From the IMG/VR virus record IMGVR_UViG_3300033233_000007: a stretch of DNA of 64,000 nucleotides; one strand, 5' to 3'. The notes under the pieces were generated by a model. It ran no database searches. It was not told where the DNA came from and worked only from the letters and a program-made list of their open reading frames with translations. Of this stretch, positions 29,659-61,651 are shown one piece after another (position 1 is the first letter of the stretch; each line of letters begins with the position of its first letter). A program made the position numbers and the translations under genes. This DNA is from a virus. Its lineage: Duplodnaviria > Heunggongvirae > Uroviricota > Caudoviricetes.

Positions 29659-29695
29659 TGCTTGACTCTTTGCTTACAGATTGTACACTGTCGTT

Positions 29696-34918: not shown

Positions 34919-34993
34919 TAGGCGCGGCTGGATTTGCACCAGCAAGCCGCCCGGTTTAAGCAGGCGAGGTATACTAATTCCCGTCACGCGCCC
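34919..34993 (-). tRNA. tRNA, anticodon UAA (Leu-type anticodon, class I structure, weak D-arm)
   Basis: Hand-folded cloverleaf. Acceptor GGGCGCG/CGCGCCT, anticodon arm GCCUG-CUUAAAC-CGGGC, T-arm GCUGG-UGCAAAU-CCAGC. Confidence 0.35.
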
Positions 34994-34995
34994 GT

Positions 34996-35071
34996 TGGTA
35001 TCCCCGCCCGGAGTCGCGCCGGGTTCTGCGCCTTCGGAGGGCGCCGTGTTTCTATCGTACACCACGGGGAC
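34996..35071 (-). tRNA. tRNA-Arg(CCG)
   Basis: Hand-folded cloverleaf. Acceptor GUCCCCG...CGGGGAU-A-CCA, anticodon loop CUCCGAA. Confidence 0.55.
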
Positions 35072-35125
35072 GCTCTTAAAGAAAACGGCCGTTTCCTTTA
35101 AGAGCGTTTCGAGCTTTCAAAGAGC

Positions 35126-35201
35126 GTTTGAAAAATGGTATCCCCGCGTGGACTCGGACCACGACTTCCGCCTTCGTAGGGCGGCGCTCTGTCCAATTGA
35201 G
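35126..35201 (-). tRNA. tRNA-Arg(ACG)
   Basis: Canonical cloverleaf. D-arm GCUCAAUUGGACAGAGC, anticodon loop CUACGAA, CCA encoded. Confidence 0.75.
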
Positions 35202-35232
35202 CTACGGGGACATCGTACTGTCAAAGAGCGAA

Positions 35233-35308
35233 TGGAACCCTCGGCGGGAGTTGCACCCGCATGATCCCGTTTAGGAAACGGGTGCCTCTTCTTTTCGGCC
35301 ATGAGGGC
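35233..35308 (-). tRNA. tRNA-Arg(CCU) (weak; overlaps the 3' end of the HNH ORF)
   Basis: Acceptor has one mismatch. Anticodon arm CCCGU-UUCCUAA-ACGGG, T-arm GCGGG-UGCAACU-CCCGC. Confidence 0.35.
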
Positions 35309-35897
35309 CATGGTTTCCAAAGAACGTACCTCCGGCGGCCCAGTTCCCAAACAGTCCAAGTTTTCGTGCTGCACGCATTCCGCCAACTACTTTAAGCCAC
35401 GCCTTGTACGGCATATCGCGCCGTGTCCAATTGCATCTGATGCAAGCGGGAACGACGTTGTCGCGGACGTGGCCCTTGGTATTGTCGATGCGATCAAGTG
35501 AAATCTTCATGTCTGATGGCGTTGCCCCACAATAAACGCATCCGCGTGAGATTGAGTCGCGCACAAAATCTCTGGTCAAGTCGAACAGAAGTCCTCGTTT
35601 TCTGTCTTCATCTCTAGCATCCTTCATTATGAGGAAGTCGCGATTTATGCCGAGACGTCTCCATCTCCTGAGTTTGGCTTTGTACTTAGCTTGTTTCCGG
35701 GTATAGGCTACCGGCGACGTTCGCCGCTTCCCCCGTAAGGTGTTGTCGCACGCCTTACATCGTGTTCGAGGCCACCGTTTTCCGTTCACAATTCGCTCGT
35801 AGAACATGTCTACTGGCTTGGGCCTCTTACACAACGTACAGCGTTTATGGTCGGACATAGTTCCGACCATAGTAGTGAACGGTGGTGGGGACTTCAA
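35271..35897 (-). CDS. HNH homing endonuclease inserted in the tRNA array
   Basis: HNH core CVYCG...ISLDRIDNTKGHVRDNVVPACIRCN. Start probably MVGTMSDHK. Confidence 0.7.
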   Translation of the reverse strand: MKSPPPFTTMVGTMSDHKRCTLCKRPKPVDMFYERIVNGKRWPRTRCKACDNTLRGKRRTSPVAYTRKQAKYKAKLRRWRRLGINRDFLIMKDARDEDRKRGLLFDLTRDFVRDSISRGCVYCGATPSDMKISLDRIDNTKGHVRDNVVPACIRCNWTRRDMPYKAWLKVVGGMRAARKLGLFGNWAAGGTFFGNHGPHGRKEEAPVS

Positions 35898-35919
35898 GGA
35901 ATTTGACCTTGAAGTCCCC
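35887..35919. repeat. 13-bp-stem hairpin GGGGACTTCAAGG-aatttga-CCTTGAAGTCCCC
   Basis: Direct reading. It lies between tRNA-Pro(CGG) and the HNH start. Confidence 0.8.
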
Positions 35920-35920
35920 G

Positions 35921-35994
35921 TCGGAGTCTCCGGACGTGCGCCGGGCCTATGCCTGTTCCCGAAACAGGTGGGGCGCTATCTCCCCATGACTCCG
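35921..35994 (-). tRNA. tRNA-Pro(CGG) (non-canonical T-loop)
   Basis: Acceptor CGGAGUC/GACUCCG, D-stem GGGG/CCCC, anticodon loop UUCGGGA. Confidence 0.45.
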
Positions 35995-36003
35995 GTCAAA
36001 GAA

Positions 36004-36074
36004 TCGGCCCGCCGGGATTCGCACCCGGATCAAGCTCTTATAAAGAGCCCGTTCTACTGTTGAACTACGAGCCG
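36004..36074 (-). tRNA. tRNA, anticodon UAU (Ile-type)
   Basis: Hand-folded cloverleaf. D-arm GUUCAACAGUAGAAC, anticodon loop UUUAUAA, T-arm CCGGG-UGCGAAU-CCCGG. Confidence 0.5.
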
Positions 36075-36075
36075 A

Positions 36076-36151
36076 TGGTCAGGGCGGCGGGACTCGCACC
36101 CGCGGTCTCCACGTCCCAAGCGTGGCGCGTTGGCTGCTACGCTACGCCCTG
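36076..36151 (-). tRNA. tRNA-Pro(UGG)
   Basis: Full cloverleaf. Anticodon arm CCACG-CUUGGGA-CGUGG, CCA encoded. Confidence 0.7.
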
Positions 36152-36152
36152 A

Positions 36153-36239
36153 TGGTGCGCTTGAGAGGATTTGCACCTCCACGAGTTTTACCTCACCGGC
36201 CCCTCAAGCCGGCGCGTCTGCTGGTTCCGCCACAGGCGC
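36153..36239 (-). tRNA. tRNA-Leu(GAG) (class II, long variable arm)
   Basis: Anticodon arm CCGGC-UUGAGGG-GCCGG with a 14-nt variable arm. CCA encoded. Confidence 0.6.
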
Positions 36240-36244
36240 GAAAT

Positions 36245-36330
36245 TGGTGGGCCCGAGAGGGTTTGCACCTCTACGCTTATTAGGCACCGGCTTCTGAGAC
36301 CGGCGTGTCTGCTAATTCCACCACGGGCCC
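36245..36330 (-). tRNA. tRNA-Leu(CAG) (class II)
   Basis: Anticodon loop CUCAGAA with a long variable arm. Acceptor GGGCCCG/CGGGCCC. Confidence 0.6.
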
Positions 36331-36331
36331 G

Positions 36332-36405
36332 TGCCCTCGACAGGATTCGCACCTGCATGCCGACGCTTTTGAGGCGTCGAGGTCTTCTAGTTGCCTCACG
36401 AGGGC
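36332..36405 (-). tRNA. tRNA, anticodon CAA (Leu-type anticodon but class I structure)
   Basis: Acceptor GCCCUCG/CGAGGGC is perfect. Anticodon arm GACGC-CUCAAAA-GCGUC, T-arm GCAGG-UGCGAAU-CCUGU. Confidence 0.4.
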
Positions 36406-36441
36406 GTGAGAATCTGTTTCTCAAAGAACGATCCGACTCCA

Positions 36442-36516
36442 TGGTGGCCCCGCTGGGACTCGCACCCAGGTCTCCTGCTTAAGAGGCAGGCCGTCTAGCT
36501 GCTGACATACGAGGCC
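36442..36516 (-). tRNA. tRNA-Lys(CUU)
   Basis: Anticodon arm CCUGC-CUCUUAA-GCAGG, T-arm CUGGG-UGCGAGU-CCCAG. CCA encoded. Confidence 0.65.
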
Positions 36517-36520
36517 GTCA

Positions 36521-36595
36521 TGGGGTCGGCGGGAATCGAACCCGCGTGAAGCTCGGTTAAAAGCCGAGTGCAAAGCCAGCGTTTGCTACGACCCC
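36521..36595 (-). tRNA. tRNA-Lys(UUU)
   Basis: Acceptor GGGGUCG/CGACCCC. Anticodon arm CUCGG-CUUUUAA-CCGAG, T-loop UUCGAUU. Confidence 0.6.
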
Positions 36596-36636
36596 TTGGA
36601 TTTGCCGTCGCGTTTCAAGCGACACCTCCTGAAAAA

Positions 36637-36710
36637 TGGCAGCCCGCCGCGGATTCGCACCGCGATCCTGACTTTGAAAAAGTCATATCCTGCTCTTAGA
36701 CGAGCGGGCC
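36637..36710 (-). tRNA. tRNA-Glu(UUC)
   Basis: Anticodon arm UGACU-UUUUCAA-AGUCA, T-arm CGCGG-UGCGAAU-CCGCG. CCA encoded. Confidence 0.6.
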
Positions 36711-36866
36711 ATCAGTGGGCGTAGCGGGGGAGCATCTTGCGCATACTCATCGGGAACCTGACCCTACTCTGGGCGGGTCTTTGCCAGCTAACCGCTTACC
36801 CTCGGGAGGCTTGGCCCGATCCCTTTGCGCCAGTGCTGGCAGCCCCCGCGCTTCGCCCACTAAAAT
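36711..36866 (-). ncRNA. about 150-nt structured non-tRNA element closed by long-range helices (GTGGGCG/CGCCCAC and GGGGG/CCCCC)
   Basis: No ORF and no cloverleaf could be built. Complementary termini at 36714-36735 and 36842-36862. Strand is assumed from the surrounding tRNAs. Confidence 0.3.
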
Positions 36867-36941
36867 TGGTACCCCGAAGGAGAGTCGAACTCCCGTTTTC
36901 GCCTTGAGAGGGCGGTGTCCTGGCCGCTAGACGACCGGGGC
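36867..36941 (-). tRNA. tRNA-Glu(CUC)
   Basis: Anticodon arm CCGCC-CUCUCAA-GGCGA, T-arm GGGAG-UUCGACU-CUCCU. CCA encoded. Confidence 0.6.
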
Positions 36942-36942
36942 A

Positions 36943-37017
36943 TGGAACCCACGGAGGGAATTGCACCCTCATGACCGATTTAGAGGATCGGCGTCCTGTC
37001 TGTTGAACGACGTGGGC
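36943..37017 (-). tRNA. tRNA-Arg(UCU) (C33 in the loop)
   Basis: Anticodon arm CCGAU-CCUCUAA-AUCGG, D-stem GUUC/GGAC. CCA encoded. Confidence 0.5.
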
Positions 37018-37018
37018 A

Positions 37019-37097
37019 TGGCTCCGGCGGCAGGAGTCGGACCTGCGACTGCCCGCTTAACAGGCGGGTACCTCAAACCGACAGAGGCATCACCGGA
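37019..37097 (-). tRNA. tRNA-Asn(GUU)
   Basis: Anticodon arm CCCGC-CUGUUAA-GCGGG, T-arm GCAGG-UCCGACU-CCUGC, with a long D-loop. Confidence 0.55.
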
Positions 37098-37098
37098 G

Positions 37099-37172
37099 TG
37101 GAGCCGCCGACCCGAATTGCACGGGCATCTGAACTTTACGAAAGTTCTGTTCTGCTGTTGAACTACAGCGGC
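37099..37172 (-). tRNA. tRNA-Thr(CGU)
   Basis: Anticodon arm GAACU-UUCGUAA-AGUUC, D-arm GUUCAACAGCAGAAC. CCA encoded. Confidence 0.6.
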
Positions 37173-37173
37173 A

Positions 37174-37250
37174 TGGAGGCCGCGGCGTGACTTCCACACG
37201 CTACATCCGCCTTTGCAGGGCGGCGCTTCGTATACTTTGGCTTCGCGGCC
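37174..37250 (-). tRNA. tRNA-Cys(GCA) (weak D-arm)
   Basis: Acceptor GGCCGCG/CGCGGCC. Anticodon arm CCGCC-CUGCAAA-GGCGG. Confidence 0.5.
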
Positions 37251-37271
37251 GTGAATCGGCAGATGGATGGA

Positions 37272-37363
37272 TGGCGGAAGGTGAGGGAGTTGCACCCCCG
37301 TCGCCCTTGCGAGGCGCACGGTTTAGCGGACCGTCCCGGCGAACTGTCATCCGGCTACCTTCC
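37272..37363 (-). tRNA. tRNA-Ser(GCU) (class II)
   Basis: Acceptor GGAAGGU/ACCUUCC. Anticodon arm ACGGU-CCGCUAA-ACCGU with an 18-nt variable arm. Confidence 0.6.
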
Positions 37364-37364
37364 G

Positions 37365-37450
37365 TGGGGGAGGGCAACGGAATTGCACCGTCACGCGAGA
37401 TGCGCGGTCCAGTTTTCGAGACTGGTTGGGCACTGCGCCCACTGCCCTCC
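37365..37450 (-). tRNA. tRNA-Ser(CGA) (class II)
   Basis: Anticodon arm CCAGU-CUCGAAA-ACUGG with a 16-nt variable arm. D-stem UGGG/CCCA. Confidence 0.6.
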
Positions 37451-37458
37451 GTGAAATT

Positions 37459-37532
37459 TGGTCCCGGCGGGTGGAGTCTCACCACCGTTTCATCTTCATG
37501 AGGGATGCGTCTTGATCTTAGACCACACCGGG
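37459..37532 (-). tRNA. tRNA-Met(CAU), elongator-type
   Basis: Anticodon loop CUCAUGA, T-arm GGUGG-UGAGACU-CCACC. CCA encoded. Confidence 0.55.
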
Positions 37533-37533
37533 A

Positions 37534-37608
37534 TGGAGCCGCCGGTCCGAGTTGCACGGACATGAACCTGTTTACAGGACAGGGGCCTTGCTGTTAGGCG
37601 ACGGCGGC
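37534..37608 (-). tRNA. tRNA-Thr(UGU)
   Basis: Acceptor GCCGCCG perfect. Anticodon arm CCUGU-CCUGUAA-ACAGG, T-arm GUCCG-UGCAACU-CGGAC. Confidence 0.6.
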
Positions 37609-37645
37609 AAAAAAAACGCCGGTGTTCTACTATTGAACTACACCG
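37609..37645 (-). terminator. truncated tRNA 5' half (acceptor + D-arm) forming a hairpin followed by T8; possible intrinsic terminator
   Basis: Minus strand reads CGGUGUAGUUCAAUAGUAGAACACCGGCG then UUUUUUUU. No anticodon arm, T-arm or 3' acceptor strand is present. Confidence 0.35.
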
Positions 37646-37766
37646 TGGAAAACGGTTGACCGGACTACGCGCGCTACGCCGGGTCGTTTTCTCGTGCGGA
37701 GGGTACTGCCCCCTCGTCTCCGGCTCTCACGGCGTCGTTTAATCCGACGCCATGAGAGAAGGAGAA

Positions 37767-37840
37767 TGGGGCCGCCAGCGGGTACTGCCCCCGCGCTTCG
37801 ATCTTACCAAGATCGCGGACTGCTTTTATCCTATGGCGGC
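37767..37840 (-). tRNA. tRNA-Thr(GGU) with atypical T-loop GGCAGUA
   Basis: Acceptor GCCGCCA/UGGCGGC. Anticodon arm CGAUC-UUGGUAA-GAUCG, T-arm GCGGG-GGCAGUA-CCCGC. CCA encoded. Confidence 0.4.
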
Positions 37841-37841
37841 A

Positions 37842-37916
37842 TGGTCCTCGCTGAGGGAATCGCACCCCCGTCCCGTGGGTGTAGGCCACGTGTTCTGGCT
37901 GCTGAACTAAGCGAGG
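37842..37916 (-). tRNA. tRNA-Val(UAC)
   Basis: Acceptor CCUCGCU perfect. Anticodon arm CGUGG-CCUACAC-CCACG, D-arm GUUCAGCAGCCAGAAC. Confidence 0.6.
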
Positions 37917-37917
37917 A

Positions 37918-37991
37918 TGGTCCTCGGCCGAGGAGTCGCGCCTCGGTTTCCAGCGTGTCATGCTGGCGTCCTCCTGTTGAACGAGCCGAGG
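37918..37991 (-). tRNA. tRNA-Val(GAC)
   Basis: Anticodon arm CCAGC-AUGACAC-GCUGG, T-arm CGAGG-CGCGACU-CCUCG. Confidence 0.6.
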
Positions 37992-37992
37992 A

Positions 37993-38070
37993 TGGTCGGG
38001 GTGACAGGGCTTGCACCTGCGGCCTCCAGCGCCCCACGCTGGCGCTCATCACTATCTGAGCTACACCCCG
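37993..38070 (-). tRNA. tRNA-Pro(GGG)
   Basis: Acceptor CGGGGUG perfect. D-arm GCUC...GAGC, anticodon arm CCAGC-GUGGGGC-GCUGG. Confidence 0.6.
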
Positions 38071-38071
38071 A

Positions 38072-38145
38072 TGGGGTGATCGCCCGGATTTGCACCGGGA
38101 CTGACAGGGCCACGGCCTGCCGTGCTTCTGTTACACCACGATCAC
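38072..38145 (-). tRNA. tRNA-His(GUG)
   Basis: Acceptor GUGAUCG perfect. Anticodon arm GCAGG-CCGUGGC-CCUGU, T-arm CCCGG-UGCAAAU-CCGGG. Confidence 0.5.
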
Positions 38146-38151
38146 GAAGAT

Positions 38152-38226
38152 TGGTCCGCCCGGTTGGAGTTGCACCAAACATCAGCCGCTTATCGGGCGG
38201 CCGTTCTACTGTTGAACTACGAGCGG
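38152..38226 (-). tRNA. tRNA-Ile(GAU)
   Basis: Anticodon arm GCCGC-CCGAUAA-GCGGC, D-arm GUUCAACAGUAGAAC. Confidence 0.55.
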
Positions 38227-38227
38227 A

Positions 38228-38301
38228 TGGACCGGCCAGCGGGTACTGCCCCCGCGCTTTCGCCTTGGCAAAGCGACAGACTTCTACTATCCGATGGCCG
38301 G
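38228..38301 (-). tRNA. tRNA-Gly(GCC) with atypical T-loop GGCAGUA
   Basis: Acceptor CCGGCCA/UGGCCGG. Anticodon arm UCGCU-UUGCCAA-GGCGA, T-arm GCGGG-GGCAGUA-CCCGC. Confidence 0.4.
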
Positions 38302-38302
38302 T

Positions 38303-38377
38303 TGGCTGGCCCGGAAGGATTCGCACCTTCACCGCGACGTTCAGAGCGTCGAATGCTGCGTGTTACACCACGAGCCA
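38303..38377 (-). tRNA. tRNA-Gln(CUG)
   Basis: Anticodon arm CGACG-CUCUGAA-CGUCG, T-arm GAAGG-UGCGAAU-CCUUC. Confidence 0.6.
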
Positions 38378-38378
38378 G

Positions 38379-38461
38379 TGGTGGGCGCGTACGGAATCGA
38401 ACCGCCTAGTCTTCGACAACGGGTTTACAACCCGCCTCCGATCCCACTCGGCAGCGCGCCC
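38379..38461 (-). tRNA. tRNA-Tyr(GUA) (class II)
   Basis: Acceptor GGGCGCG perfect. Anticodon arm GCGGG-UUGUAAA-CCCGU with a 12-nt variable arm. Confidence 0.55.
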
Positions 38462-39099
38462 TAGCGTGCTTTGTACGATCGATGCTTCTTTGAACGCTCG
38501 ACCATGCGCTCGACGTACCGGATCATTTTCCGCGGCGTGACGGCCGACGTGCGGTAGGCCCAGCGCCCTTCTGAAAGCGCCATGTGCCGCGTTGAGTGGT
38601 GCAGGTGGCAGACCCACTCGAGGTTCTTCGGCCTATTGTCGTCCTCGTTGCCGTTAATGTGATGGACCACAAGAAGGCTCGGGACTTTGATCTTGCAACT
38701 GACGCATCGGAGCTTTCGGCTGTTGTACTTGATCGCGCGGTTGCGAATGCTGGCGGTAGCCGCGCGCCCCTTGCCCCGGCCCCAGTTCCGCGGTCGCGCT
38801 ACGATGATGCCGCTGTCGAGCTTTTGCGCTTTGTGCCGGCACTCGCGGCTGCAGACGGGGGCGCCCTTGAGCGAATTTATGTAGCGCGGCGTGATTTCGA
38901 AGGGCTTGTCGCAGACCTCGCACCAGACGCGCATGCGCTTTCTGGAGAGTTTGTTACGGCATTCAAACGAACAGGCCTTTCGCTTCTTGTCGAACGCGGG
39001 GAAGACGAACTTTTCCTTACAGGCCCCGCAACGTCTCTCGACGCAGAGCCGCTTCTGGCCGTCGAAAGTCCGGGTCATGAACGGGCGCCGCCTGAGCAC
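38461..39099 (-). CDS. HNH endonuclease with N-terminal zinc fingers, inside the tRNA array
   Basis: HNH core VVHHINGNEDDNRPKNLEWVCHLHH, with multiple CxxC pairs. Confidence 0.65.
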   Translation of the reverse strand: MLRRRPFMTRTFDGQKRLCVERRCGACKEKFVFPAFDKKRKACSFECRNKLSRKRMRVWCEVCDKPFEITPRYINSLKGAPVCSRECRHKAQKLDSGIIVARPRNWGRGKGRAATASIRNRAIKYNSRKLRCVSCKIKVPSLLVVHHINGNEDDNRPKNLEWVCHLHHSTRHMALSEGRWAYRTSAVTPRKMIRYVERMVERSKKHRSYKAR

Positions 39100-39214
39100 G
39101 AGGGGATCGTACGCGGAAGTTAAGGGAAGTCAAGAGGATGGTGGACCCGCGGGGATGCGCGCCCCGATTTTCACGATGCCATCGTGATGTCCTCCTGGTT
39201 GGACGACGGGCCCA

Positions 39215-39288
39215 TGGTGGACGCGGAGGGAATCGCACCCTCATTTTCGCATTGCGAAAGCGACGGTCTCCTGTTGACCTACGCGCCC
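39215..39288 (-). tRNA. tRNA-Ala(CGC)
   Basis: Acceptor has the G3:U70 Ala identity pair. Anticodon loop UUCGCAA, T-arm GAGGG-UGCGAUU-CCCUC. Confidence 0.5.
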
Positions 39289-39289
39289 A

Positions 39290-39364
39290 TGGCCGGCGCG
39301 GCTGGTAACGCTCCAGCATCTCCTCCTCTTCAGGGAGGCGCTCAAACTTCTGAGCTACGCGCCG
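39290..39364 (-). tRNA. tRNA-Phe(GAA)
   Basis: Acceptor CGGCGCG perfect. D-arm GCUC...GAGC, anticodon arm CCUCC-CUGAAGA-GGAGG. Confidence 0.6.
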
Positions 39365-39372
39365 GTGAAAGA

Positions 39373-39446
39373 TGGTTCCGGGAGAAGGATTTACACCTTC
39401 GTCTTCTGATTCAAAGTCAGAAATCCTATTACTAGACGATCCCGGA
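39373..39446 (-). tRNA. tRNA-Gln(UUG)
   Basis: Anticodon arm UCUGA-CUUUGAA-UCAGA, T-arm GAAGG-UGUAAAU-CCUUC. Confidence 0.55.
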
Positions 39447-39447
39447 A

Positions 39448-39525
39448 TGGCGGGGATGACGAGAGTCGCACTCGCTAATTGCCGCCGTGACAGGGCGGTG
39501 GCTCCACTACTTTGCCCTCATCCCC
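39448..39525 (-). tRNA. tRNA-Asp(GUC)
   Basis: Acceptor GGGGAUG perfect. Anticodon arm CCGCC-CUGUCAC-GGCGG. Confidence 0.6.
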
Positions 39526-44782: not shown

Positions 44783-45916
44783 CTAAAGCCCCGCGGCTTG
44801 TTTCTGAACATGAGGACTCGAAACCATAGGCTCCATGACGAGAGCCCTCTCCGGGCAGGCTTGCCTCCTGGAGATCGTCTGCGCGGCATTGAAGTCCGCG
44901 GCCAGACGATAGCCGCAGACGGCGCACGTAAAGTGCGCCCCGCTTCGAGAAGATTTGTCCACGACGCCACACTTCGAGCACTCACGGCTCGTGTTCTTGG
45001 CGGCCACGGACACGACTTCGACACCGGCCAAAGCCGCCTTGTAACGGATCATCGTCTCAAGCTCGGAAAAGGCCCATGCGTTGATCCTCCGATTCCACGT
45101 CTTGCTGAACCGCTTGAGGCGATCCCGAATGCCCTTGAGGTCCTCCAGTTTGATGACGGCCCTCTTTTTAGTCGCCTCGTCAACGATGGCCTTGCTGATC
45201 CGATGGTTCTCGTTCCGCATCCAACGATGCTCCCTTCCCGACAGCCGTTTCAAGAGGCGCCTAGCGCTTCTTGTGCCTATGGACTGGAGCTTCGCCCTGC
45301 GGGACGCGAACCTCTCACGGACGTGCATGACCTTTCGACCGGAATGGAATTTCCCCGCGGACGTGACGGCAATGTTATAGACGCCCCTATCGACGCCGAT
45401 GGCGCAGATGGGATGCGACCGCTGGCCTGGATCGTCTTCGACGACGATATGGATGTACCACTTGCGATCTCCATAGACAAGCTTGGCGGCGGTGGGTCTC
45501 TTCCCGCGAAGATTGTCGCGCTGGTACGTTCCGAGGACGAGAGGAACGTGGACGCGGCCGTTGACCGTCGTCAGGGATACCGCCTCTTCGTTCTCACGGT
45601 AGGTGAAGATTCGCTCATCGTAATCGACGCTCGTGGGCCTGAACTTCTTGACGGTCCTGTCCTTGCGTTTCACGGCTTTGATCGCCCATGCGACGCGGGC
45701 GATGGCGCGAATGGCGAGATTAGCGGAAAGGTTGAACTGTTTGCGGATATCGTGGTAGACGAGGTGCTGAAGTTTGACCTTGTTCGAAGTTTTCTCACGG
45801 ACAGCGACCTCAAGGATGACGTCGCACGCGGCGGCAAACTTCGTGAGCGTGTCCTTGAGGGCGTCGGAGACAGTGGGGGCGGGGTCCATTTTGCAGATGA
45901 TTGTTCGCTGTTGCAT
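44783..45916 (-). CDS. tnpB: TnpB (IS1341/IS605-family OrfB), second copy, distinct from 29696..30898
   Basis: N-terminal MQQRTIICKMDPAPT and a C-terminal CSKCG...CAVCGYRLAADFNAAQTI. Confidence 0.75.
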   Translation of the reverse strand: MQQRTIICKMDPAPTVSDALKDTLTKFAAACDVILEVAVREKTSNKVKLQHLVYHDIRKQFNLSANLAIRAIARVAWAIKAVKRKDRTVKKFRPTSVDYDERIFTYRENEEAVSLTTVNGRVHVPLVLGTYQRDNLRGKRPTAAKLVYGDRKWYIHIVVEDDPGQRSHPICAIGVDRGVYNIAVTSAGKFHSGRKVMHVRERFASRRAKLQSIGTRSARRLLKRLSGREHRWMRNENHRISKAIVDEATKKRAVIKLEDLKGIRDRLKRFSKTWNRRINAWAFSELETMIRYKAALAGVEVVSVAAKNTSRECSKCGVVDKSSRSGAHFTCAVCGYRLAADFNAAQTISRRQACPERALVMEPMVSSPHVQKQAAGL

Positions 45917-46243
45917 GACGAATATAATATCACATACGTCTTGAATGTCAAGGAGGGCGACGCTTCTTCCGTTCGGGCTGAAGCCCGGCGGCATCCGCGT
46001 CGCAAGAATTGGTGAAGTTTGTCAGACTCGTTCTGAGCCCATGGGGCGTCGAACTGGCGGGCGCTCTGTGCCTTCTGGCCGCGGGCTTCGAATTCATGGG
46101 ATCGTGGGCTTCGCCAGATCAGTTCACCCGCGCTATGAACTTGGCGGGCTATGGATCGATGCTAATTCTGACCGCATACGTTGAGCGGGACCTGCTCAAA
46201 GGTGTAAACTCCCGTTCGTGCGAAACCGAAAAAGGAGAGGCAT

Positions 46244-47221: not shown

Positions 47222-49915
47222 GTGGAGGTCGTAACCTTGAAAAGAAACGTACAAGCGACCGCCGAACTCATGATGGGCCGTGAAGCCGACAGCGGCCGTA
47301 CGTTCGCGCTGCCCGTGGATGCACTCGTGCAGACGTTCGCGTTCATGGGCATCCGCGGCTCGGGCAAGTGCGTGGAAGCTTCGGAAAAGATTTTGTTGTC
47401 CGATGGTAGAGTCGAACCTGCTCATACTTTGATCGGCCGAACTTTCTCAATCTTGGGCATTGGGGATAAAGGTGAGTTCGTACCGAGGATTGCACACGCT
47501 GCGGACAATGGCATGCGCGGCACTTATCTCGTCAGAACAAGAAGCGGGAGGGAGATTCTTAGGACGGCTGAACATCCCCTCTGGGCGGCGGAAGTTGTCA
47601 CCGAATATACTCGACCAAAGATAAAGAAGGTTGGATGGGTTGCGGTACAGAACTTGGTCGCCTGCGGATGGGGCGAGTCAAGAGATCGAAAGATGGTCCA
47701 TGCCGTTGCTGTTCCCACCTCTATTCCGATCAATGGGAATCGTCCTCGCAATGATGATGAAGTGAAGCTGGCGGCTTACTTGGTAGGAGACGGGGGCACG
47801 ACTTGCTCTGTCAGTTTTACGCATCTTCCGGGACCCGCGCTGGATGAGTTTGTGGAAATTGCGCATCGTCTTGGCGGAAAGGTTCATTGCTCCAAGTCCG
47901 CGTCAAAAGCAGTACAGCTTAGAGTCTCTGGAGCTTCGAATCTGGATGGCAGAGGGAGCAAGGGATCGAATCCAGTTCTTGAGCTTGTCAAGTCATGGGG
48001 ATTGTTTGGGGTTAAGTCCAAGCACAAGTCATTCCCGAGTTGGGTGTGGGAGTTGCCGGATCGCCAAATTGCCTTATTCTTGAACCGTCTGCTGTCTTGT
48101 GACGGGTGGGCGTTAACGACTACGCATGGCAGGTCGGATATTGGCATCTGTTCTGCATCCTATGCTTTGATCCGGGATGTTGAACTGGCCATGCTCAGAC
48201 TTGGCATTCCGGGATCGATTAACCGCAAGACCGTTAAAGGGGTGTGGAAGACGACTCCTGGTGACTACATCGCCTATACGTGGAATATTGGGAGTCGAGA
48301 GGCTCTTGCGACATTTGTCGCAAGAGTTGGAATCTTTGGCAAGGAACAACAAGTTGCGAAAGCCGTACCTCATAACGGCGGCGCTGGATGGAAGCGGACA
48401 TGGACAGCCGTTGATGACATGCCTGGAATGCGATGGGATTTCGTTGAAAGGGTCCAGTGCATTGGTGAACGCCCGACTGTTTCGATTTCTGTGCCTGGAG
48501 ATGAGCGTTTCGTAACAACCTTTCTTGAGCACAACACCACGGCCGTCGCCGTTCTTGCCGAGGAGTTCTCCAAAGCCGGTCTGCCGTGGATCATGCTCGA
48601 TCCTGTCGGCGTCGGCTGGGGCCTCCGTGCGGGCAAAGACGGAAAGTCCGGCGGCGGTTTCCCCGTCGTCGTCTTCGGCGGCTCGCACGGCGATCTGCCG
48701 CTCGACAAAGACGGTGGTCGGAAGGTTGCCGAGGCTCTGATCGAATCGAATGTCTGCGCCGTCATCGACCTGTCCAAAGAGAGCAAGAAAACGTGGCGCC
48801 GCTTCCTCACCGATTTTTGTCTCGCACTTATGGACCTGAACCCGCAGACTCCGCGGCACCTCTTTATAGAGGAAGCGGCTGAGTTTATTCCGCAACGAAC
48901 AAAGGTCGCCGTGACGGCCGAGTGCAAGGAAGCCGTGGAGCGGCTCGTGCGGCTTGGCCGAAATCAAGGCTACGGCTGCTCGATCATCACGCAGCGGCCG
49001 GCGACGGTCGACAAAGATGTACTTTCACAATGCGAAAATTTGGTCGTTATGCGTACGGTCGGCAAGCACGACCGTAGGGCTCTCATGGACTGGCTGGAAC
49101 CGAAGTTTTCGGAGCAGGGGCTTGACGAAAAGGGCGTCAGGGCCGAAGGCACGAAACTCGTCAATACCCTCGCGGCCTTCGACAGCGGGGTCGCGTACTT
49201 CTGGAGCCCGCATTGGCTGAAGCAGTTCAAGAAAGTCAGGATTCGCGACCGGGCGACGTTCCATCCGGGGCAGACACGGTCCGTCGGGAAGTCCATCGGC
49301 CCCGTGGCACTCTCTGACGTTACTGAGTTCGTGGAAAGGGTCCGTCGCCAGCTTTCGGCTTCGAAGCCGGCGAGCGTTCCGCAGAGCTATACCCCGAGAA
49401 AAATCGAATCGCTTAAGAAGGAAATCAAGTCTATCGAGACCTCGAGTGGCTCCGCCATCGTGCTCGATCCCGTCACGTCACGTCAAGCTGCTGAGGCTAT
49501 CCGAGACGTCGCCCGAGAGGCCGACGAACTTCGTCAGCGCGTTGGCGAGCTTCAGAAGCAGATCGCCGAGGAGAAGGCCCGTCGTGCCGACGCCGAGAAC
49601 CGTCTGGCCGCGGTCCGCAAGTTCATGGAACCGCAGTACGAGACGATGAAGAAGCTGTTCGAGAAGCTCGGGACTCCGGGCAGTAACGGCGCTGCCGACT
49701 CGTCGGTCTACGCGCCGTGGCTCGAAAAGGCCGGCAAGCGCGGCTCGAAGCGGCTTTTGGAGATCATGATCGCCCGCGGCGAAGTGACGCGCACGCAGCT
49801 TGCGACGCTCGCGGGCATCGCGCAGTCGGGTACGTTCCGAAACTATCTCAGTTGGCTCAAGAGCAACGGCCTCGTGGAGGTTCAGGGCGAGCAGGTTCGC
49901 CTTCGTCCCATTTAG
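47222..49915 (+). CDS. HerA/FtsK-like P-loop ATPase (possible DNA-translocating/packaging ATPase) carrying an intein; C-terminal coiled coil and winged helix
   Basis: Extein Walker A GIRGSGK|TT is reconstituted after intein removal. Walker B LFIEEAAE and HerA-like IITQRP. Confidence 0.7.
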   Translation: MEVVTLKRNVQATAELMMGREADSGRTFALPVDALVQTFAFMGIRGSGKCVEASEKILLSDGRVEPAHTLIGRTFSILGIGDKGEFVPRIAHAADNGMRGTYLVRTRSGREILRTAEHPLWAAEVVTEYTRPKIKKVGWVAVQNLVACGWGESRDRKMVHAVAVPTSIPINGNRPRNDDEVKLAAYLVGDGGTTCSVSFTHLPGPALDEFVEIAHRLGGKVHCSKSASKAVQLRVSGASNLDGRGSKGSNPVLELVKSWGLFGVKSKHKSFPSWVWELPDRQIALFLNRLLSCDGWALTTTHGRSDIGICSASYALIRDVELAMLRLGIPGSINRKTVKGVWKTTPGDYIAYTWNIGSREALATFVARVGIFGKEQQVAKAVPHNGGAGWKRTWTAVDDMPGMRWDFVERVQCIGERPTVSISVPGDERFVTTFLEHNTTAVAVLAEEFSKAGLPWIMLDPVGVGWGLRAGKDGKSGGGFPVVVFGGSHGDLPLDKDGGRKVAEALIESNVCAVIDLSKESKKTWRRFLTDFCLALMDLNPQTPRHLFIEEAAEFIPQRTKVAVTAECKEAVERLVRLGRNQGYGCSIITQRPATVDKDVLSQCENLVVMRTVGKHDRRALMDWLEPKFSEQGLDEKGVRAEGTKLVNTLAAFDSGVAYFWSPHWLKQFKKVRIRDRATFHPGQTRSVGKSIGPVALSDVTEFVERVRRQLSASKPASVPQSYTPRKIESLKKEIKSIETSSGSAIVLDPVTSRQAAEAIRDVAREADELRQRVGELQKQIAEEKARRADAENRLAAVRKFMEPQYETMKKLFEKLGTPGSNGAADSSVYAPWLEKAGKRGSKRLLEIMIARGEVTRTQLATLAGIAQSGTFRNYLSWLKSNGLVEVQGEQVRLRPI
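47369..48535 (+). other. intein (389 aa) with a LAGLIDADG homing endonuclease domain, inserted in the P-loop
   Basis: Starts at Cys after GSGK (CVEASEKILLSDG). LAGLIDADG-like blocks LAAYLVGDGG and LFLNRLLSCDGW. Ends FVTTFLEHN, followed by Thr. Confidence 0.7.
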
Positions 49916-57365: not shown

Positions 57366-57624
57366 GACCGATCACGCTGAGGACCTCAAGGACAAGAGGG
57401 AGGAATTCAGGGCTCAGTTGGCGAAGATCGAAACCGAGTTTGAAGCGGCCAAGAGAAAGATCGGCGTTCTTGCGGGCGTCGCTCTCGAAATCGACAAGCA
57501 CACGGACTCATGTGAGAAGTGCGGCGGCCCGGCGAAAAAGGGCCGCGGGCCCTACATCGACGAAGGCGTGCTTCGGCTTCTGGCCAAGGCGTCCGAGGGC
57601 GATAAGTTCAAAGTGGTGATGTGA
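57349..57624 (+). CDS. hypothetical protein
   Basis: ORF. Confidence 0.35.
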   Translation: MAETRKTDHAEDLKDKREEFRAQLAKIETEFEAAKRKIGVLAGVALEIDKHTDSCEKCGGPAKKGRGPYIDEGVLRLLAKASEGDKFKVVM

Positions 57625-57902
57625 TGGGGACGATCTGGCATTACGTGGAGTGCGATAAGTGCGTCGGCGGCCCGCCGGTTAAGCCTGTGCACTGGACGGA
57701 AGAACATGACCTGCTGGAGACGCTTCAGAAGGCGTCCGAGGCTCGTGCTGTCGCGGAGGCGACGATCATGCGTGCCGAGACCGAGTATCGAAGGGTCCTG
57801 GACAAGCTCGATCGCCCGCGTACCGGCGTGCATGACGAATGCTCGTGCAAATGGTGCGTCGCCGTGGACGCGGAGTCGCGTAGATCGACGGAGATGACAT
57901 GA
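57621..57902 (+). CDS. hypothetical Cys-containing protein
   Basis: ORF with an ATGTGATG overlap. Confidence 0.35.
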   Translation: MMGTIWHYVECDKCVGGPPVKPVHWTEEHDLLETLQKASEARAVAEATIMRAETEYRRVLDKLDRPRTGVHDECSCKWCVAVDAESRRSTEMT

Positions 57903-58054
57903 ACGAGAACTGCGAAGGTTGCGACGAGGAGTGGACGTTGCACAAGCTCAGCACCTGCCCCGAATGCGACCGCAACCTCTGCCCCCGATGCTTCCGCGCC
58001 GACGACTATGACGAATGTTACGAATGCTGGCAGGAGAAAAAGGAGACGACATGA
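57899..58054 (+). CDS. zinc-finger mini-protein (51 aa)
   Basis: Protein MNENCEGCDEEW...CPECDRNLCPRC...CYECW. Confidence 0.35.
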   Translation: MNENCEGCDEEWTLHKLSTCPECDRNLCPRCFRADDYDECYECWQEKKETT

Positions 58055-58677
58055 CGACTTACAAACTTGCGGTAAAGCCGCATCACGATCCTCTGGTTAA
58101 GGAATGTCCAGACTGCGTCGATTGGCTTGGCGCCTGGGCCGAACAGGCGCAAGTCGAAGTCGAACGCCTCCGCGCCGAGTGCGAACGGCTGCTGTGCATC
58201 GAGGCGGTGTTGAGGGCGGCGCTGATCGATGTTGGCGTCGGTGAGAATTGTTGGTGCGGCTCTTGCGAGGATGACGACGAAGGAGATTCGATTGACGGTG
58301 AGCCCCATAGCGCGGCCTGTAGAAAAGCCCGCGCCGCCCTTGCCCCGCAGGACGTGCCCGCGAAGTTTCACGGTCACGGAGACCTGAGCCCGGAGGAATG
58401 GAAGAAGCGCACGCCCCCGCCACCGGGCGAACTCATATCGGACGGGACAGATAGTCCGATGCCAGAGCGTAAGACACGGGTGGCCAGGACGGTGCGATTC
58501 TACACCAAGCCCGAGACGGTGACGGTCAGTAAGCGAGAGTGGGAGGCGATGACGGTTTTGTTGTCGGCAGCACAACGAGTCATCAACGGGCAGCCGGGCG
58601 CGGCTATCGACGCCGCCGAAGCCCGCCGCGCTGCCCGCGCTTCCCTCGCGGACCCCAAGAACGAGAAGGCCCCGTGA
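58051..58677 (+). CDS. hypothetical protein
   Basis: ORF with an ATGA overlap. Confidence 0.4.
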   Translation: MTTYKLAVKPHHDPLVKECPDCVDWLGAWAEQAQVEVERLRAECERLLCIEAVLRAALIDVGVGENCWCGSCEDDDEGDSIDGEPHSAACRKARAALAPQDVPAKFHGHGDLSPEEWKKRTPPPPGELISDGTDSPMPERKTRVARTVRFYTKPETVTVSKREWEAMTVLLSAAQRVINGQPGAAIDAAEARRAARASLADPKNEKAP

Positions 58678-58847
58678 TGAAAAAGTCGCGCTATGTGGTT
58701 CGCAGGAGTCGCTTCTCTGTCTTTTGCGGAGGCAATTGCTACCGAAAAGTGTGGAACGTCACAAATTCTTATGGCGACGTGGTGTATCATCCCTCCACGC
58801 GACAGATGGCCCGTGAGTGGATCAAACAGATGGAGGTCCCGAGATGA
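58676..58847 (+). CDS. hypothetical small protein
   Basis: ORF. Confidence 0.3.
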
Positions 58848-59095
58848 AAACTGACGAGCGGGATTGGATGTGTACACGGGGTTGCGGTGGCGTAAACAAC
58901 TGGCATCATCAATACTGCGGCGAATGCGGGTCCTCGCGAACGCCGGATCATAGTGAGCCCATGCCCGACCTCATTGTTTCCGCTCGCCTCACTGCGCTGG
59001 AAGAACTCATAGAGGATGCGAGAGCGGCCGTAATTTGTGGTCTGTACGTTTCGAAAAGTCATGCGCGCGATGCGGCAAAGAACCGAAGTGGGTGA
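58844..59095 (+). CDS. hypothetical zinc-finger protein
   Basis: ORF with an ATGA overlap. Confidence 0.35.
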   Translation: MKTDERDWMCTRGCGGVNNWHHQYCGECGSSRTPDHSEPMPDLIVSARLTALEELIEDARAAVICGLYVSKSHARDAAKNRSG

Positions 59096-59114
59096 AAGCC
59101 GTAAGGAGCCGTAG

Positions 59115-59312
59115 ATGACGACCCGACAGCAAGAGACGATTATGATGCTGCGAAATGAGTTGCTGACGTTCCACGAGTTGGAGACGGCTACGTCAGCGCT
59201 GCTGGCTGTTGCGTGGCGGCAAGAATGCAGATGCAAGTTCATGGACGTGTACGCTAAGTTGCGGGACGCGCTGGATCGCGTTGAAGCGGCGCGGAAAAGG
59301 GCGGGGGAGTAG
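59115..59312 (+). CDS. hypothetical protein
   Basis: ORF. Confidence 0.3.
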   Translation: MTTRQQETIMMLRNELLTFHELETATSALLAVAWRQECRCKFMDVYAKLRDALDRVEAARKRAGE

Positions 59313-59313
59313 G

Positions 59314-59529
59314 ATGGCCGGACGTTTTGGAAGCGAGAATCCTCGGCGAGTCGTCGCGTACACGTCCTGCCCGGATTGCACCTGCTGGTCGCTGGGCCTT
59401 CAAGCCAACGGCCGCATCGTCCGCCACTCCGTAAGCTTCGGTTCAGTCGAAAAGGTCGGGCCCGGTACACGGCACCCGCAGTGGAGGAGTACGATTTGCT
59501 CCGGTAGTGGGAAGAAGCAGGAGCCGTAG
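59314..59529 (+). CDS. hypothetical Cys-containing protein
   Basis: ORF. Confidence 0.3.
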   Translation: MAGRFGSENPRRVVAYTSCPDCTCWSLGLQANGRIVRHSVSFGSVEKVGPGTRHPQWRSTICSGSGKKQEP

Positions 59530-59708
59530 ATGAGCGAGGTCAAACGGCGCCTGTTCATGTGGTCCATCCGAAACGCGGGAGCGTGTCGGATGGTAAAATG
59601 GGTCGTGAACACTCTCGTTTGGTTTGGCGTCACGATCCCGGATCAAGTCTGGGTCGGGAGGTGCTCTAACGGCATGGAATACGGCTACGTTTTCGTAGGA
59701 CATAGATG
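59529..59708 (+). CDS. hypothetical membrane mini-protein
   Basis: ORF. Confidence 0.3.
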
Positions 59709-59888
59709 AAGTGCGATTGTTGCGAGCGCGTCGCCGTGTCCGTCCTGGCTCGCTTGGACCTTCCCAAGCTGAAGGACTGGAACGTCTCGGGCCGCTGTTG
59801 CAATCAATGTGACGTGCGGGAGAATGAGGACTCGTGGACGGTCTGGTGCCTCGTGCACAAGAAGGTGCTGTATCAAAACGGGGAATAG
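59706..59888 (+). CDS. hypothetical Cys-rich mini-protein
   Basis: ORF. Confidence 0.3.
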   Translation: MKCDCCERVAVSVLARLDLPKLKDWNVSGRCCNQCDVRENEDSWTVWCLVHKKVLYQNGE

Positions 59889-60113
59889 ATGACTACGACA
59901 ATTCAATGCGCGCGATGCGGTTACTGGCTGGATGAGAGCACAACGGTCTTGCGCCTGGTTAATTATCTTCGTTGCGGTCCCGGCGAAGAGTTCCATGGCG
60001 TCATGGCGTATCGGTGCGTTTGTCCCGACCGCAGCGACTGCAACCGCCGCTGCGATGTTGGCATGCGGGCCAAGGGCGAGTTGCCGAAGAACGTGAGCGT
60101 GGACTATGACTAA
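59889..60113 (+). CDS. hypothetical Cys-rich protein
   Basis: ORF. Confidence 0.3.
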   Translation: MTTTIQCARCGYWLDESTTVLRLVNYLRCGPGEEFHGVMAYRCVCPDRSDCNRRCDVGMRAKGELPKNVSVDYD

Positions 60114-60279
60114 CGTCTACGATCTGACCTACCTGAGCCTCGGCGCCGGCCGCGGCCCGGCGTCAAAGGCGAGGTGTTCCTTCATAAATCGATGATCCCC
60201 CTCAAAGAGGTTGCCTTTGCGCCGAAGCCGAAGCCCGACGGATTCGGAAACGAGTGCGAAGGCATTTGCGGAGTTTGAG

Positions 60280-60618
60280 ATGAAAATTCTTACGATCTGA
60301 GCGGCCGGCAACGTCCGGTCCGTGGGACTGGCGTACATCTTCAAGCAGTTGTTCAGTCACGAGTCCATACCGATCGGCGCGGAGACGACCTCAGACGACA
60401 CGCGTGAGCTTCTGAGCGGGTGGGCCGACAAGATCGTCGTCCTGCGGCCGCACTACGTCGAGGCCGTGCCGCCGGCCCACAGGCACAAGGTCTTGGTGTA
60501 CGACGTTGGCGAGGACATCTGGCTCAATCCGTACCATCAGAATCTCCAGCATGAACTAATGAAGCTGATCCGCAAGGACGGTTTCTTTTTGCGTGAGGAC
60601 AAGCATGTCGATGTCTGA
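60280..60618 (+). pseudogene. CX5R(S) phosphatase-like ORF (LMW-PTP/ArsC-like signature) with an in-frame TGA exactly at the catalytic Cys position
   Basis: ATG at 60280 with a GGAG RBS. Reads MKILTI-TGA-AAGNVRSVGLAYIF..., which matches C-x-A-G-x-x-R-S if the TGA is translated. Confidence 0.35.
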
Positions 60619-61651
60619 TCCCCGCATCAGTACGACAGAGATCGAGCGTTGGCGCGTCATAAACGCGAATTGCATTGACGCGCTTAAGACGCTACCGCGC
60701 CAGAGCGTGGACGCCGTAGTGACGGACCCTCCTTACGAGTTTCATCTGATGGGCAAAGACTGGGACCAGTCTGGCGTTTCCTTCAACCCGGAGACGTGGA
60801 AGGCCGCGCTTCGCGTGCTGAAGCCGGGCGCGCACATGCTGGTGTTCGGAGGCACGCGGACGTTTCACAGGATCGCGTGTGCCGTCGAAGACGCCCGGTT
60901 CGAACTGCGTGACACACTTTGCTGGCTGTACGCGCAGGGTTATCCGAAATCGCTGGCCGCGCTCAAGCCCGCTTGGGAGCCGATCATCGTGGCCCGAAAG
61001 CCTCTGAGCGAGAAGACCGTGACGGCGAACATTCTCAAGCACGGCACGGGCGGGCTCAACATCGACGCCTGTCGTATCGGCCGCAACGCCGGCGACCGAT
61101 ACGAATACGGCGTCAACGGAGATGAGCCGAGCGCGCCGACGAAGAACGTCTACGGAGAGCGCGGTCGCAAGGGGTACGAAGCGCACGCGATCGGGCGATG
61201 GCCTGCGAATCTCGTTTTGGACGAGGAGGCCGCCCGTCTCGTCGACGAGCAAGCGGGCGACCGGCCTGCCGGCGGCCACCCCAGGCGACGTGGCCCGGAC
61301 GGTCAGCGAAACACCTACGGCCGCTTTAACGGCGGGGCGAACAGGCGCATCGGCGTCCAGAACACGACGGGCGGTGCGTCCCGCTTTTTCTATGTGGCTA
61401 AGGCCAGTAAGTCCGATCGCGGTAGCAGCAACGATCATCCCGCGGTAAAACCGACGGCGCTCATGATGTGGCTCTGCACGCTCGTGACAGCGCCGGGTGG
61501 CTTGGTCCTGGACCCGTTCGCGGGTTCGGGAACCACGGGCGTGGCCTGCATCAGTACCGGCCACAGATTTATCGGCATCGAGATCGATCCTGGTTACTGT
61601 AGAATCGCCCGTCGCAGAATCGCCGAGGCCATTCGAAACAAGGAGGCGTAG
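60605..61651 (+). CDS. DNA methyltransferase (beta-class N6-adenine/N4-cytosine, DPPY)
   Basis: Motif IV VTDPPY, then motif I LDPFAGSGTTG. Confidence 0.8.
   Translation: MSMSDPRISTTEIERWRVINANCIDALKTLPRQSVDAVVTDPPYEFHLMGKDWDQSGVSFNPETWKAALRVLKPGAHMLVFGGTRTFHRIACAVEDARFELRDTLCWLYAQGYPKSLAALKPAWEPIIVARKPLSEKTVTANILKHGTGGLNIDACRIGRNAGDRYEYGVNGDEPSAPTKNVYGERGRKGYEAHAIGRWPANLVLDEEAARLVDEQAGDRPAGGHPRRRGPDGQRNTYGRFNGGANRRIGVQNTTGGASRFFYVAKASKSDRGSSNDHPAVKPTALMMWLCTLVTAPGGLVLDPFAGSGTTGVACISTGHRFIGIEIDPGYCRIARRRIAEAIRNKEA

Follow-up and report, generated by a model that had tools for sequence, protein, structure and literature searches.

Bacterial selenoprotein genes that carry their selenocysteine insertion sequence (SECIS) inside their open reading frame (ORF), with E. 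coli fdhF as an example and more than 100 families known, have a characteristic layout. A UGA codon replaces the catalytic cysteine of homologous enzymes, a downstream hairpin presents G-U in a small apical loop 16-37 nucleotides (nt) from the UGA, and homologs with the TGA are found elsewhere. Here we describe a gene with the same layout at positions 60280-60618 of a 64,000-nt stretch of viral DNA (IMG/VR record IMGVR_UViG_3300033233_000007), which is referred to throughout as the window. Unlike the bacterial genes, it lies on a phage-like genome, with no sel genes or selenocysteine tRNA (tRNA-Sec) seen nearby. Codon 7 of the gene is an in-frame TGA, and from comparative sequence analysis we consider it probable (roughly 0.7) that this UGA is decoded as selenocysteine (Sec) in a host-dependent manner.

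On the protein side, the low molecular weight protein tyrosine/arginine phosphatases (LMW-PTPs; Wzb, YwlE and PtpA, PF01451) have in common with the window family a first strand, a C-x5-R-S/T P-loop and a first helix, as well as a conserved Asp late in the sequence. In contrast to these proteins of ~150 residues, members of the window family have ~105, their P-loop reads C-x-x-G-N-x-R-S rather than C-x-G-N-x-C-R-S, and in the window gene the nucleophile is UGA-encoded. In arsenate reductases of the LMW-PTP type (S. aureus pI258 ArsC and the mycothiol-dependent ArsC1/2 of C. glutamicum) the P-loop Cys serves in redox chemistry, a role that is usual for Sec; the C. glutamicum enzymes use one catalytic Cys together with an external thiol. 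The window gene differs from these in having no ars genes nearby, and it contains no Cys codon besides the UGA position. Because this position is the sole possible Cys site of the window protein, which thus lacks a second Cys, no three-Cys cascade is possible and the pI258-type arsenate reductase mechanism was ruled out. Sec itself occupies the nucleophile position in the prokaryotic arsenate reductases TIGR00014 ('UxxS') and NF041106 ('UxxC'), whose motifs differ from that of the window; we take TIGR00014 to be the glutaredoxin-coupled, thioredoxin-like ArsC family, which does not have the LMW-PTP fold. Selenoproteins of eukaryotic viruses, namely the glutathione peroxidase homologs of molluscum contagiosum and fowlpox viruses, are also encoded by genes with a Sec-UGA and use the Sec machinery of the host. 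These have a SECIS in the 3' untranslated region and belong to a well-known family, whereas the present case would combine a phage, a bacterial-type SECIS within the ORF and a new family. Phage, virus, plasmid, phosphatase, tyrosine and PF01451 all go unmentioned in the 2026 review that catalogues the selenoprotein families of prokaryotes, as do phage and phosphatase in BSepDB. The recoding mechanism is already known; the bacteriophage carrier, together with the family and fold, would be new.

An earlier note on this DNA had proposed that an ATG at 60280, preceded by GGAG, opens a reading frame whose TGA at 60298-60300 falls on the catalytic-Cys position of an LMW-PTP/ArsC-type protein with a C-x5-R-S P-loop. 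These elements, and an open frame to 60618, were confirmed in the sequence (Table 1). Codons 2-6 read K-I-L-T-I, upstream of the TGA at codon 7; after the internal TGA the zero frame reads AAGNVRSVGLAYIF, and the next stop is reached only at 60616-60618. The ORF listing and public gene callers place the start at GTG 60322, which gives a 98-residue protein (P0001). No promoter or terminator motif was found near the window gene.

Searched alone, the read-through protein returned nothing significant from Pfam, PHROGs, NCBIfam, PDB sequences or, by tblastn, from 50,697 GenBank phages. A word-index search yielded one homolog, P0002, with 48% identity. This protein, the nearest Cys-containing homolog, starts MKILTICQGGNVRSVGLAYI, and its gene has TGT exactly at the position of the window's TGA, so that the placement of the TGA at the catalytic Cys is upheld by homology as well as by motif. 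The stretch MKILTI-x-..GNVRSVGLAYI, which flanks the TGA on both sides, matches P0002 and is the best-conserved part of the protein. We then extended the family with a profile search that covered 1.84 billion representatives. This search gave 696 representatives at E<1e-3, 408 of them below 1e-10, mostly 100-120 residues in length. The C-x5-R-[ST] motif is present near the N-terminus in 137 of the 150 best representatives. Among 83 aligned members R13, S14 and W48 are invariant, and C7, G10, L45, A49, K70, G77, D79 and L89 are nearly so. The consensus P-loop of the family, C-x-x-G-N-V-R-S, lies between strand 1 and helix 1, and at the DNA level TGT or TGC is found at the TGA-equivalent codon in ~20 distinct homologous loci. 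The earlier note had reasoned that its proposal would fall if homologs started downstream of the TGA and had no conserved Cys at that site. The alignment gave the opposite result: the homologs begin upstream of the TGA position and carry a conserved Cys there. Two family representatives, P0088 (CQGGNVHS) and P0139 (CRGGSVAS), are without the invariant P-loop Arg and may be catalytically dead paralogs.

When the family profile was compared with PDB sequences, all 12 matches were LMW-PTPs, the best being YwlE (E = 0.002), and the family Cys and Arg aligned with the catalytic Cys and Arg of these enzymes. An AlphaFold model of P0002, with a predicted local distance difference test score (pLDDT) of 98, shows a four-stranded Rossmann-like fold matching solved LMW-PTPs. 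The profile matches and the model both bear out the assignment of the ORF as a P-loop protein of the LMW-PTP/ArsC type. Pfam LMWPc (PF01451) was matched by 3 of the 83 members, below the gathering threshold (best E 0.011); the window protein itself had zero Pfam matches, and none of the NCBIfam models matches the family. The phosphotransferase system EIIB proteins (lactose/cellobiose type, PF02302) were considered as another assignment and rejected, as they gave neither a significant family match nor the closest structural similarity. By these comparisons the family is a short, unannotated, distant branch of the LMW-PTP/ArsC fold superfamily, in which D79 is, by analogy with LMW-PTPs, a candidate general acid.

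We next consider the relatives that share the TGA. The 90% cluster of P0001 contained two further members, one at the locus L018 and one at the loci L019/L020. L018 belongs to an ENA assembly and matches 9 kb of the window at 100% identity, TGA included; by this identity it is an independent assembly of the same phage. L019 and L020 belong to two Logan assemblies (ERR13950643/44) and represent a different phage, in which the shared segments are 74-89% identical at the nt level and the gene order differs. Their gene reads L-K-I-L-T-I-TGA-A-A-G-N-V-R-S and has 89% nt identity to the window gene. L019 becomes homologous to the window at 60278, 2 nt ahead of the ATG, and the DNA upstream is unrelated; L019 has its own AAGGAGG at the same spacing, followed by a TTG start. 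In L019/L020 an additional gene sits between this gene and the methyltransferase gene. The two runs are numbered adjacent to the Lake Lama sediment ancient-DNA runs of PRJEB80877, an origin suggested by the accession range and unconfirmed.

Comparison of the window gene with that of L019 revealed 28 synonymous and 8 non-synonymous codon differences, corresponding to a synonymous divergence (dS) of 0.58, a non-synonymous divergence (dN) of 0.038 and a dN/dS ratio (omega) of 0.067. Neutrality was rejected (binomial P 5e-12), and the adjacent DNA methyltransferase, with an omega of 0.18, is under weaker constraint than the window gene. Codons 2-14, which span the TGA, contain zero amino-acid changes and one synonymous change, and the two lineages share an identical run of 35 nt around the TGA. 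Within this stretch codons 8-14 (AAGNVRS) are the same nucleotide for nucleotide and agree with the P-loop of the family. Synonymous changes are sparse near the TGA, with 2 of 17 sites changed in codons 4-26 compared with 0.46 elsewhere (P about 0.003). The substitution pattern demonstrates that the reading frame is under purifying selection across the UGA, and on this evidence the window gene is an intact phage gene, translated from 60280 and strongly constrained.

A third TGA case, L028, was found on a contig from a run unrelated to those of the other TGA loci (Table 1). The gene starts ATG AAA TTC GTC GCA ATA TGA CGT GGT GGA GTA GTA AGA AGT, that is MKFVAI-TGA-RGGVVRS. Its ATG and the stop codon of the upstream gene overlap (ATGA), as is typical of translational coupling. 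The encoded protein is 40% identical to the window protein. Because both proteins are closer to certain Cys-containing relatives (47-52% identity) than to one another, the TGA probably arose independently in the window clade and in L028. Further searches for relatives were largely negative. In IMG/VR there were zero relatives of P0113, P0135 and P0149, and the exact DNA pattern of the window gene had 0 matches there. A metagenome scan returned one Cys relative only (L017, 45% identity). A degenerate TGA-specific pattern gave 0 matches in IMG/VR and one in genome contigs (L021), a chance match within an unrelated gene.

New prokaryotic selenoprotein families are called from a Cys/Sec pair, a candidate bacterial SECIS (bSECIS) and TGA-containing homologs elsewhere (PMC13188914), and all three are found for the window gene. 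The bSECIS consensus specifies an apical loop 3-9 nt long, whose first two positions include a G, usually with G or U next, an upper stem of 4-16 base pairs (bp), a UGA-to-loop distance of 16-37 nt and a free energy of <= -7.5 kcal/mol (PMC13188914); the spacing rule is also stated in PMC10778597. In all three of the TGA genes (window, L019 and L028) a hairpin lies within each of these four limits, and the loop GU and upper stem of the window hairpin are retained in L019. The earlier note had pointed to a different structure, a GCCGG/CCGGU hairpin formed by 60304-60308 with 60315-60319. This hairpin does exist, and the minimum-energy fold of L019 includes it. With only ~8 nt between the UGA and its loop, it falls outside the range of 16-37 nt and is therefore too near to be the SECIS; the hairpin at 60311-60334 is stronger and agrees better with the position expected of a SECIS. 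The fdhF SECIS has a bulged U at +17, as in the window hairpin at 60311-60334, and an upper stem of 4 bp compared with 7-8 bp in the TGA genes described here.

We evaluated how often such hairpins occur by other means. Hairpins of the window's grade were obtained in 3% of synonymous recodings of the window peptide. Hairpins of the L028 grade occurred at 1.9% of in-frame sites of L028 and in 13% of its synonymous recodings. When 16 family sequences were ranked by their hairpins, a Cys gene (L014) came first, the window second and L019 third. Folding z-scores for the whole region were unremarkable (-1.4 and 0.2), and Rfam found nothing around the internal TGA. Taken alone, the hairpin evidence is weak and only supportive. 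L014:2971 and the identical L015 have no in-frame ATG, GTG or TTG upstream of the P-loop; a CTG start is possible.

In the mechanism that we propose, the SelB and tRNA-Sec of the host would decode the codon 7 UGA as selenocysteine during infection, and the coding-sequence hairpin at 60311-60334, with GU in its apical loop 21 nt past the UGA, would recruit the Sec machinery. SelA, SelB, SelC and SelD would all be supplied by the host. The product would be a Sec version of a Cys enzyme with Sec as its P-loop nucleophile, and its activity might be hydrolysis of a phospho-substrate or reduction of an oxyanion such as arsenate. We infer that the inserted residue is selenocysteine and that the hairpin is its SECIS. 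Since known selenoproteins are almost all redox enzymes (PMC2673044), there is a hint that the family may consist of ArsC-like reductases that use an external thiol, rather than of plain hydrolases. Among the options that the earlier note had listed, selenocysteine or readthrough is the best supported. We also regard as likely, with somewhat less confidence than the decoding itself, the broader proposal that this is a new, phage-encoded selenoprotein family in which Sec substitutes for the LMW-PTP/ArsC P-loop nucleophile, in which the Cys-to-Sec change occurred at least twice, in phages of 60% and 33% GC, and which both depends on and reports Sec decoding by the host.

Several observations weigh against decoding as selenocysteine. 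Concerning selection, codons 44-61 are as quiet as those near the TGA, so the suppression of synonymous changes around the TGA is not specific; the selection test rests on two lineages only, and L028 is a singleton. Concerning the hairpins, 12% of randomly chosen in-frame sites in the window, with its 60% GC, have an equal or better one, and 6 of 13 Cys-containing relatives also pass the bSECIS consensus. The hairpin that follows the TGC of L014 has 12 bp and -17.5 kcal/mol and is stronger than those of the TGA genes, which is a caution against over-reading the latter. In addition, the minimum-energy fold of the 48-nt stretch of L019 is a different pair of hairpins. Concerning the machinery, zero sel genes were found among the 55 window ORFs scanned, and no tRNA-Sec in the 64-kb window. 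A phage-encoded selenoprotein was not found in the literature searched (full text), where the papers on viral selenoproteins concern eukaryotic viruses. Finally, Sec in a PTP-type P-loop is without listed precedent; either the chemistry would be unusual or the family is really a reductase.

An improbable alternative is that the UGA is decoded, but not as selenocysteine. This could occur by low-level near-cognate readthrough with insertion of Trp, Cys or Arg, which would maintain trace amounts of the enzyme, or by a host UGA-to-Cys system in which a tRNA-Cys-like or tRNA-Sec-like tRNA works with a SelB-like factor. The purifying selection across the TGA, the conserved start codon and the recurrence fit such decoding equally well, whichever residue is inserted, and the hairpin statistics are modest; moreover, a hydrolytic phosphatase has no obvious need for selenium (PMC2673044). 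Trp or Arg would, however, destroy the invariant nucleophile, and it is hard to see how either could have been selected twice at one codon. Sec genes are classically recognised by a UGA at the catalytic Cys and a hairpin downstream of it. UGA-to-Cys systems are rare, and we know of no report of UGA followed by G as a leaky context in bacteria. Wholesale changes of the code were also considered. TGA is the commonest stop in the window, where it ends 31 of 59 rough gene calls, and no other window gene is convincingly interrupted by TGA, the candidates being adjacent same-frame genes or antisense frames. On the L028 contig Trp is encoded by TGG 25 times, there is one internal TGA in 846 codons and TGA ends two genes; for these reasons the contig does not use genetic code 4. 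Genome-wide UGA reassignment (codes 4 and 25, or phage stop-codon recoding) was rejected for both the window and L028, and codon usage establishes that general UGA reassignment is absent. A frameshift at the TGA was rejected because homology runs on in the zero frame directly past the TGA and would be lost by a change of frame. None of the ~32 window tRNAs has a UCA anticodon, even with relaxed ARAGORN settings, and no Cys, Trp or Gly tRNAs were detected in the window array. Sub-threshold Rfam matches to tRNA-Sec in this array proved to be the class II tRNAs Ser(CGA), Tyr and Ser(GCT).

A second alternative, which we judge to be similarly improbable, is that the TGA is a nonsense mutation and that no functional protein is made. 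The gene would have been inactivated recently, with the TGA inherited just before the sampling of the two lineages or spread among co-occurring phages by a short recombination tract. TGC and TGT are each one base from TGA, and a recent recombination tract could also explain the 35 identical nt around it; L018, whose ENA analysis number is adjacent to that of L012, and L019/L020 may share a lake-sediment project, as judged by accession proximity only. Such a history is difficult to reconcile with an omega of 0.067 at a dS of 0.58 when the TGA is present in both lineages, a constraint stricter than that on the functional methyltransferase. Nor does any of the three TGA genes show a second defect; each has either an intact Shine-Dalgarno sequence and start or ATGA coupling, in upstream contexts that differ. 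The same codon would also have to be struck independently in L028, and only 1 of the 36 single-base nonsense routes in the window gene falls on codon 7, or 1 of the 8 that lie in the first 25 codons. As a comparison, N-terminally truncated members drawn from the top 150 representatives were checked on their contigs, and all 7 of these other truncated calls were either mis-starts or had a rearranged N-terminus. P0150, P0136, P0076, P0096, P0123 and P0133 are mis-starts by the gene caller with the Cys codon intact. In P0012 (L012:120-473) unrelated sequence takes the place of the N-terminus, P-loop Cys included; this member appears to be a copy that was rearranged or has decayed, and provides an example of a genuinely damaged member. 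The freshly inactivated pseudogene that the earlier note had offered as an option is therefore strongly disfavoured, both by dN/dS and by the independent TGA in L028.

The earlier note had further allowed that the TGA is a genuine stop, so that MKILTI would be a leader peptide and a truncated product would be made by re-initiation downstream, which we consider very unlikely. Gene callers do report 98 residues from GTG 60322 in the window (P0001, P0153) and 89 residues from a TTG in L019 (P0152), but these two calls use differing starts, the GTG of the window is GTA in L019, and no Shine-Dalgarno sequence precedes any candidate restart. The fold is a single compact domain, and the restart product would lack its strand 1, its P-loop and most of its helix 1. 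Moreover, the AAGNVRS codons would then be untranslated, yet they are nucleotide-identical between the lineages and resemble the family. This option thus found no support. A sequencing or assembly error, or ancient-DNA damage, at a true TGC or TGT codon can be dismissed with near certainty. Some related contigs do come from runs numbered near those of a lake-sediment ancient-DNA project. However, the window shares the TGA with the independent L018, with two assemblies of the diverged lineage (L019 and L020) and with L028 from an unrelated run, and C-to-A or T-to-A is not the deamination signature of ancient DNA.

The window, at 60% GC, looks like part of a large phage genome; the source contig of P0001 is 125.8 kb. 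Genes in the window include those for helicases, RecA, a gp32-like protein, HNH proteins and DNA methyltransferases. No close known phage was found, the DnaE protein being at most 30% identical to Streptomyces phage proteins, and the nearest source-named relative of TnpB, with 68% identity, comes from a Planctomycetota metagenome-assembled genome. Both similarities are too weak to serve as host evidence. The 897-residue ORF may be an intein or a homing endonuclease within an unrecognised host protein, and the CxxC pairs of the small ORFs just upstream of the TGA gene suggest zinc-ribbon proteins. On the contig of the closest Cys relative (L001:1415-3923) the gene directly follows phage GroES-like and GroEL-like genes and an MT-A70 methyltransferase gene. 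A DNA methyltransferase also neighbours the gene in the window, L013 and L019.

Table 1. Coordinates of the TGA gene, its candidate hairpins and other features. Positions are those of the window unless another source is named.
Feature	Position	Strand	Remarks
Shine-Dalgarno GGAG	60270-60273	+	6-nt spacer, then ATG 60280
Complete gene, small LMW-PTP-fold protein	60280-60618	+	112 codons including internal UGA at codon 7, plus terminal TGA
In-frame TGA, codon 7, candidate selenocysteine codon	60298-60300	+	aligned with near-invariant P-loop Cys
P-loop stretch U-A-A-G-N-V-R-S (C-x5-R-S motif)	60298-60321	+	Arg13 60316-60318, Ser14 60319-60321
Asp79 in conserved D-V-G-x-D-x-W motif	60514-60516	+	near-invariant in family
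True stop, also TGA	60616-60618	+	overlaps start region of N6/N4 DNA methyltransferase gene, 60593-61651
Candidate bSECIS of window	60311-60334	+	3 bp, bulged U (60314), 7 bp; loop GUG 60322-60324; spacing 21 nt; -13 to -14 kcal/mol
Alternative hairpin GGCCGG/CCGGUC, loop CAACGU	60303-60320	+	mutually exclusive with 60311-60334; sequence identical in L019
Hairpin of L019			same 7-bp upper stem; loop GUA, spacing 21 nt, about -10 kcal/mol
Hairpin of L028			8-bp stem; loop UGUAU, spacing 24 nt, -9.7 kcal/mol
L028 family member (P0113), Logan SRR25621600	1453-1770		third TGA case, 33% GC contig
DnaE-type DNA polymerase III alpha, C-terminal uracil-DNA glycosylase fusion	4717-7827	-	<=30% identity to Streptomyces phage DnaE
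TnpB (IS605 OrfB / Cas12f-like) gene	29681-30898	+	
tRNA array	34919-39525	-	about 32 tRNA genes
Ser(CGA) tRNA	37365-37450	-	missed by default ARAGORN; Rfam or relaxed settings only
Val(GAC) tRNA	37918-37991	-	missed by default ARAGORN; Rfam or relaxed settings only
Ala(GGC) tRNA	39139-39213	-	missed by default ARAGORN; Rfam or relaxed settings only
Asp(GUC) tRNA	39451-39525	-	missed by default ARAGORN; Rfam or relaxed settings only
TnpB (IS605 OrfB / Cas12f-like) gene	44783-45994	-	
897-residue ORF	47222-49915	+	sole Pfam match LAGLIDADG_3, residues 282-370
Run of very small CxxC-pair-rich ORFs	57600-60120	+	e.g. 57899-58054, 59889-60113; just upstream of TGA gene

If decoding of this UGA as selenocysteine is confirmed, SelB/SECIS-dependent recoding would operate on bacteriophage genes, and the selenoproteome would gain a C-x5-R P-loop family of the LMW-PTP type, with a fold that is absent from the 2026 catalogue. 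The family would also provide a natural Sec/Cys pair for asking what selenium's benefit is at a phosphatase- or reductase-type nucleophile. Every gene caller cut the TGA genes to 89-98 residues, so that protein databases would systematically miss phage selenoproteins. With a Sec-UGA in a gene that looks essential, the phage would be limited to hosts among Sec-decoding bacteria, which could serve as a clue for host prediction.

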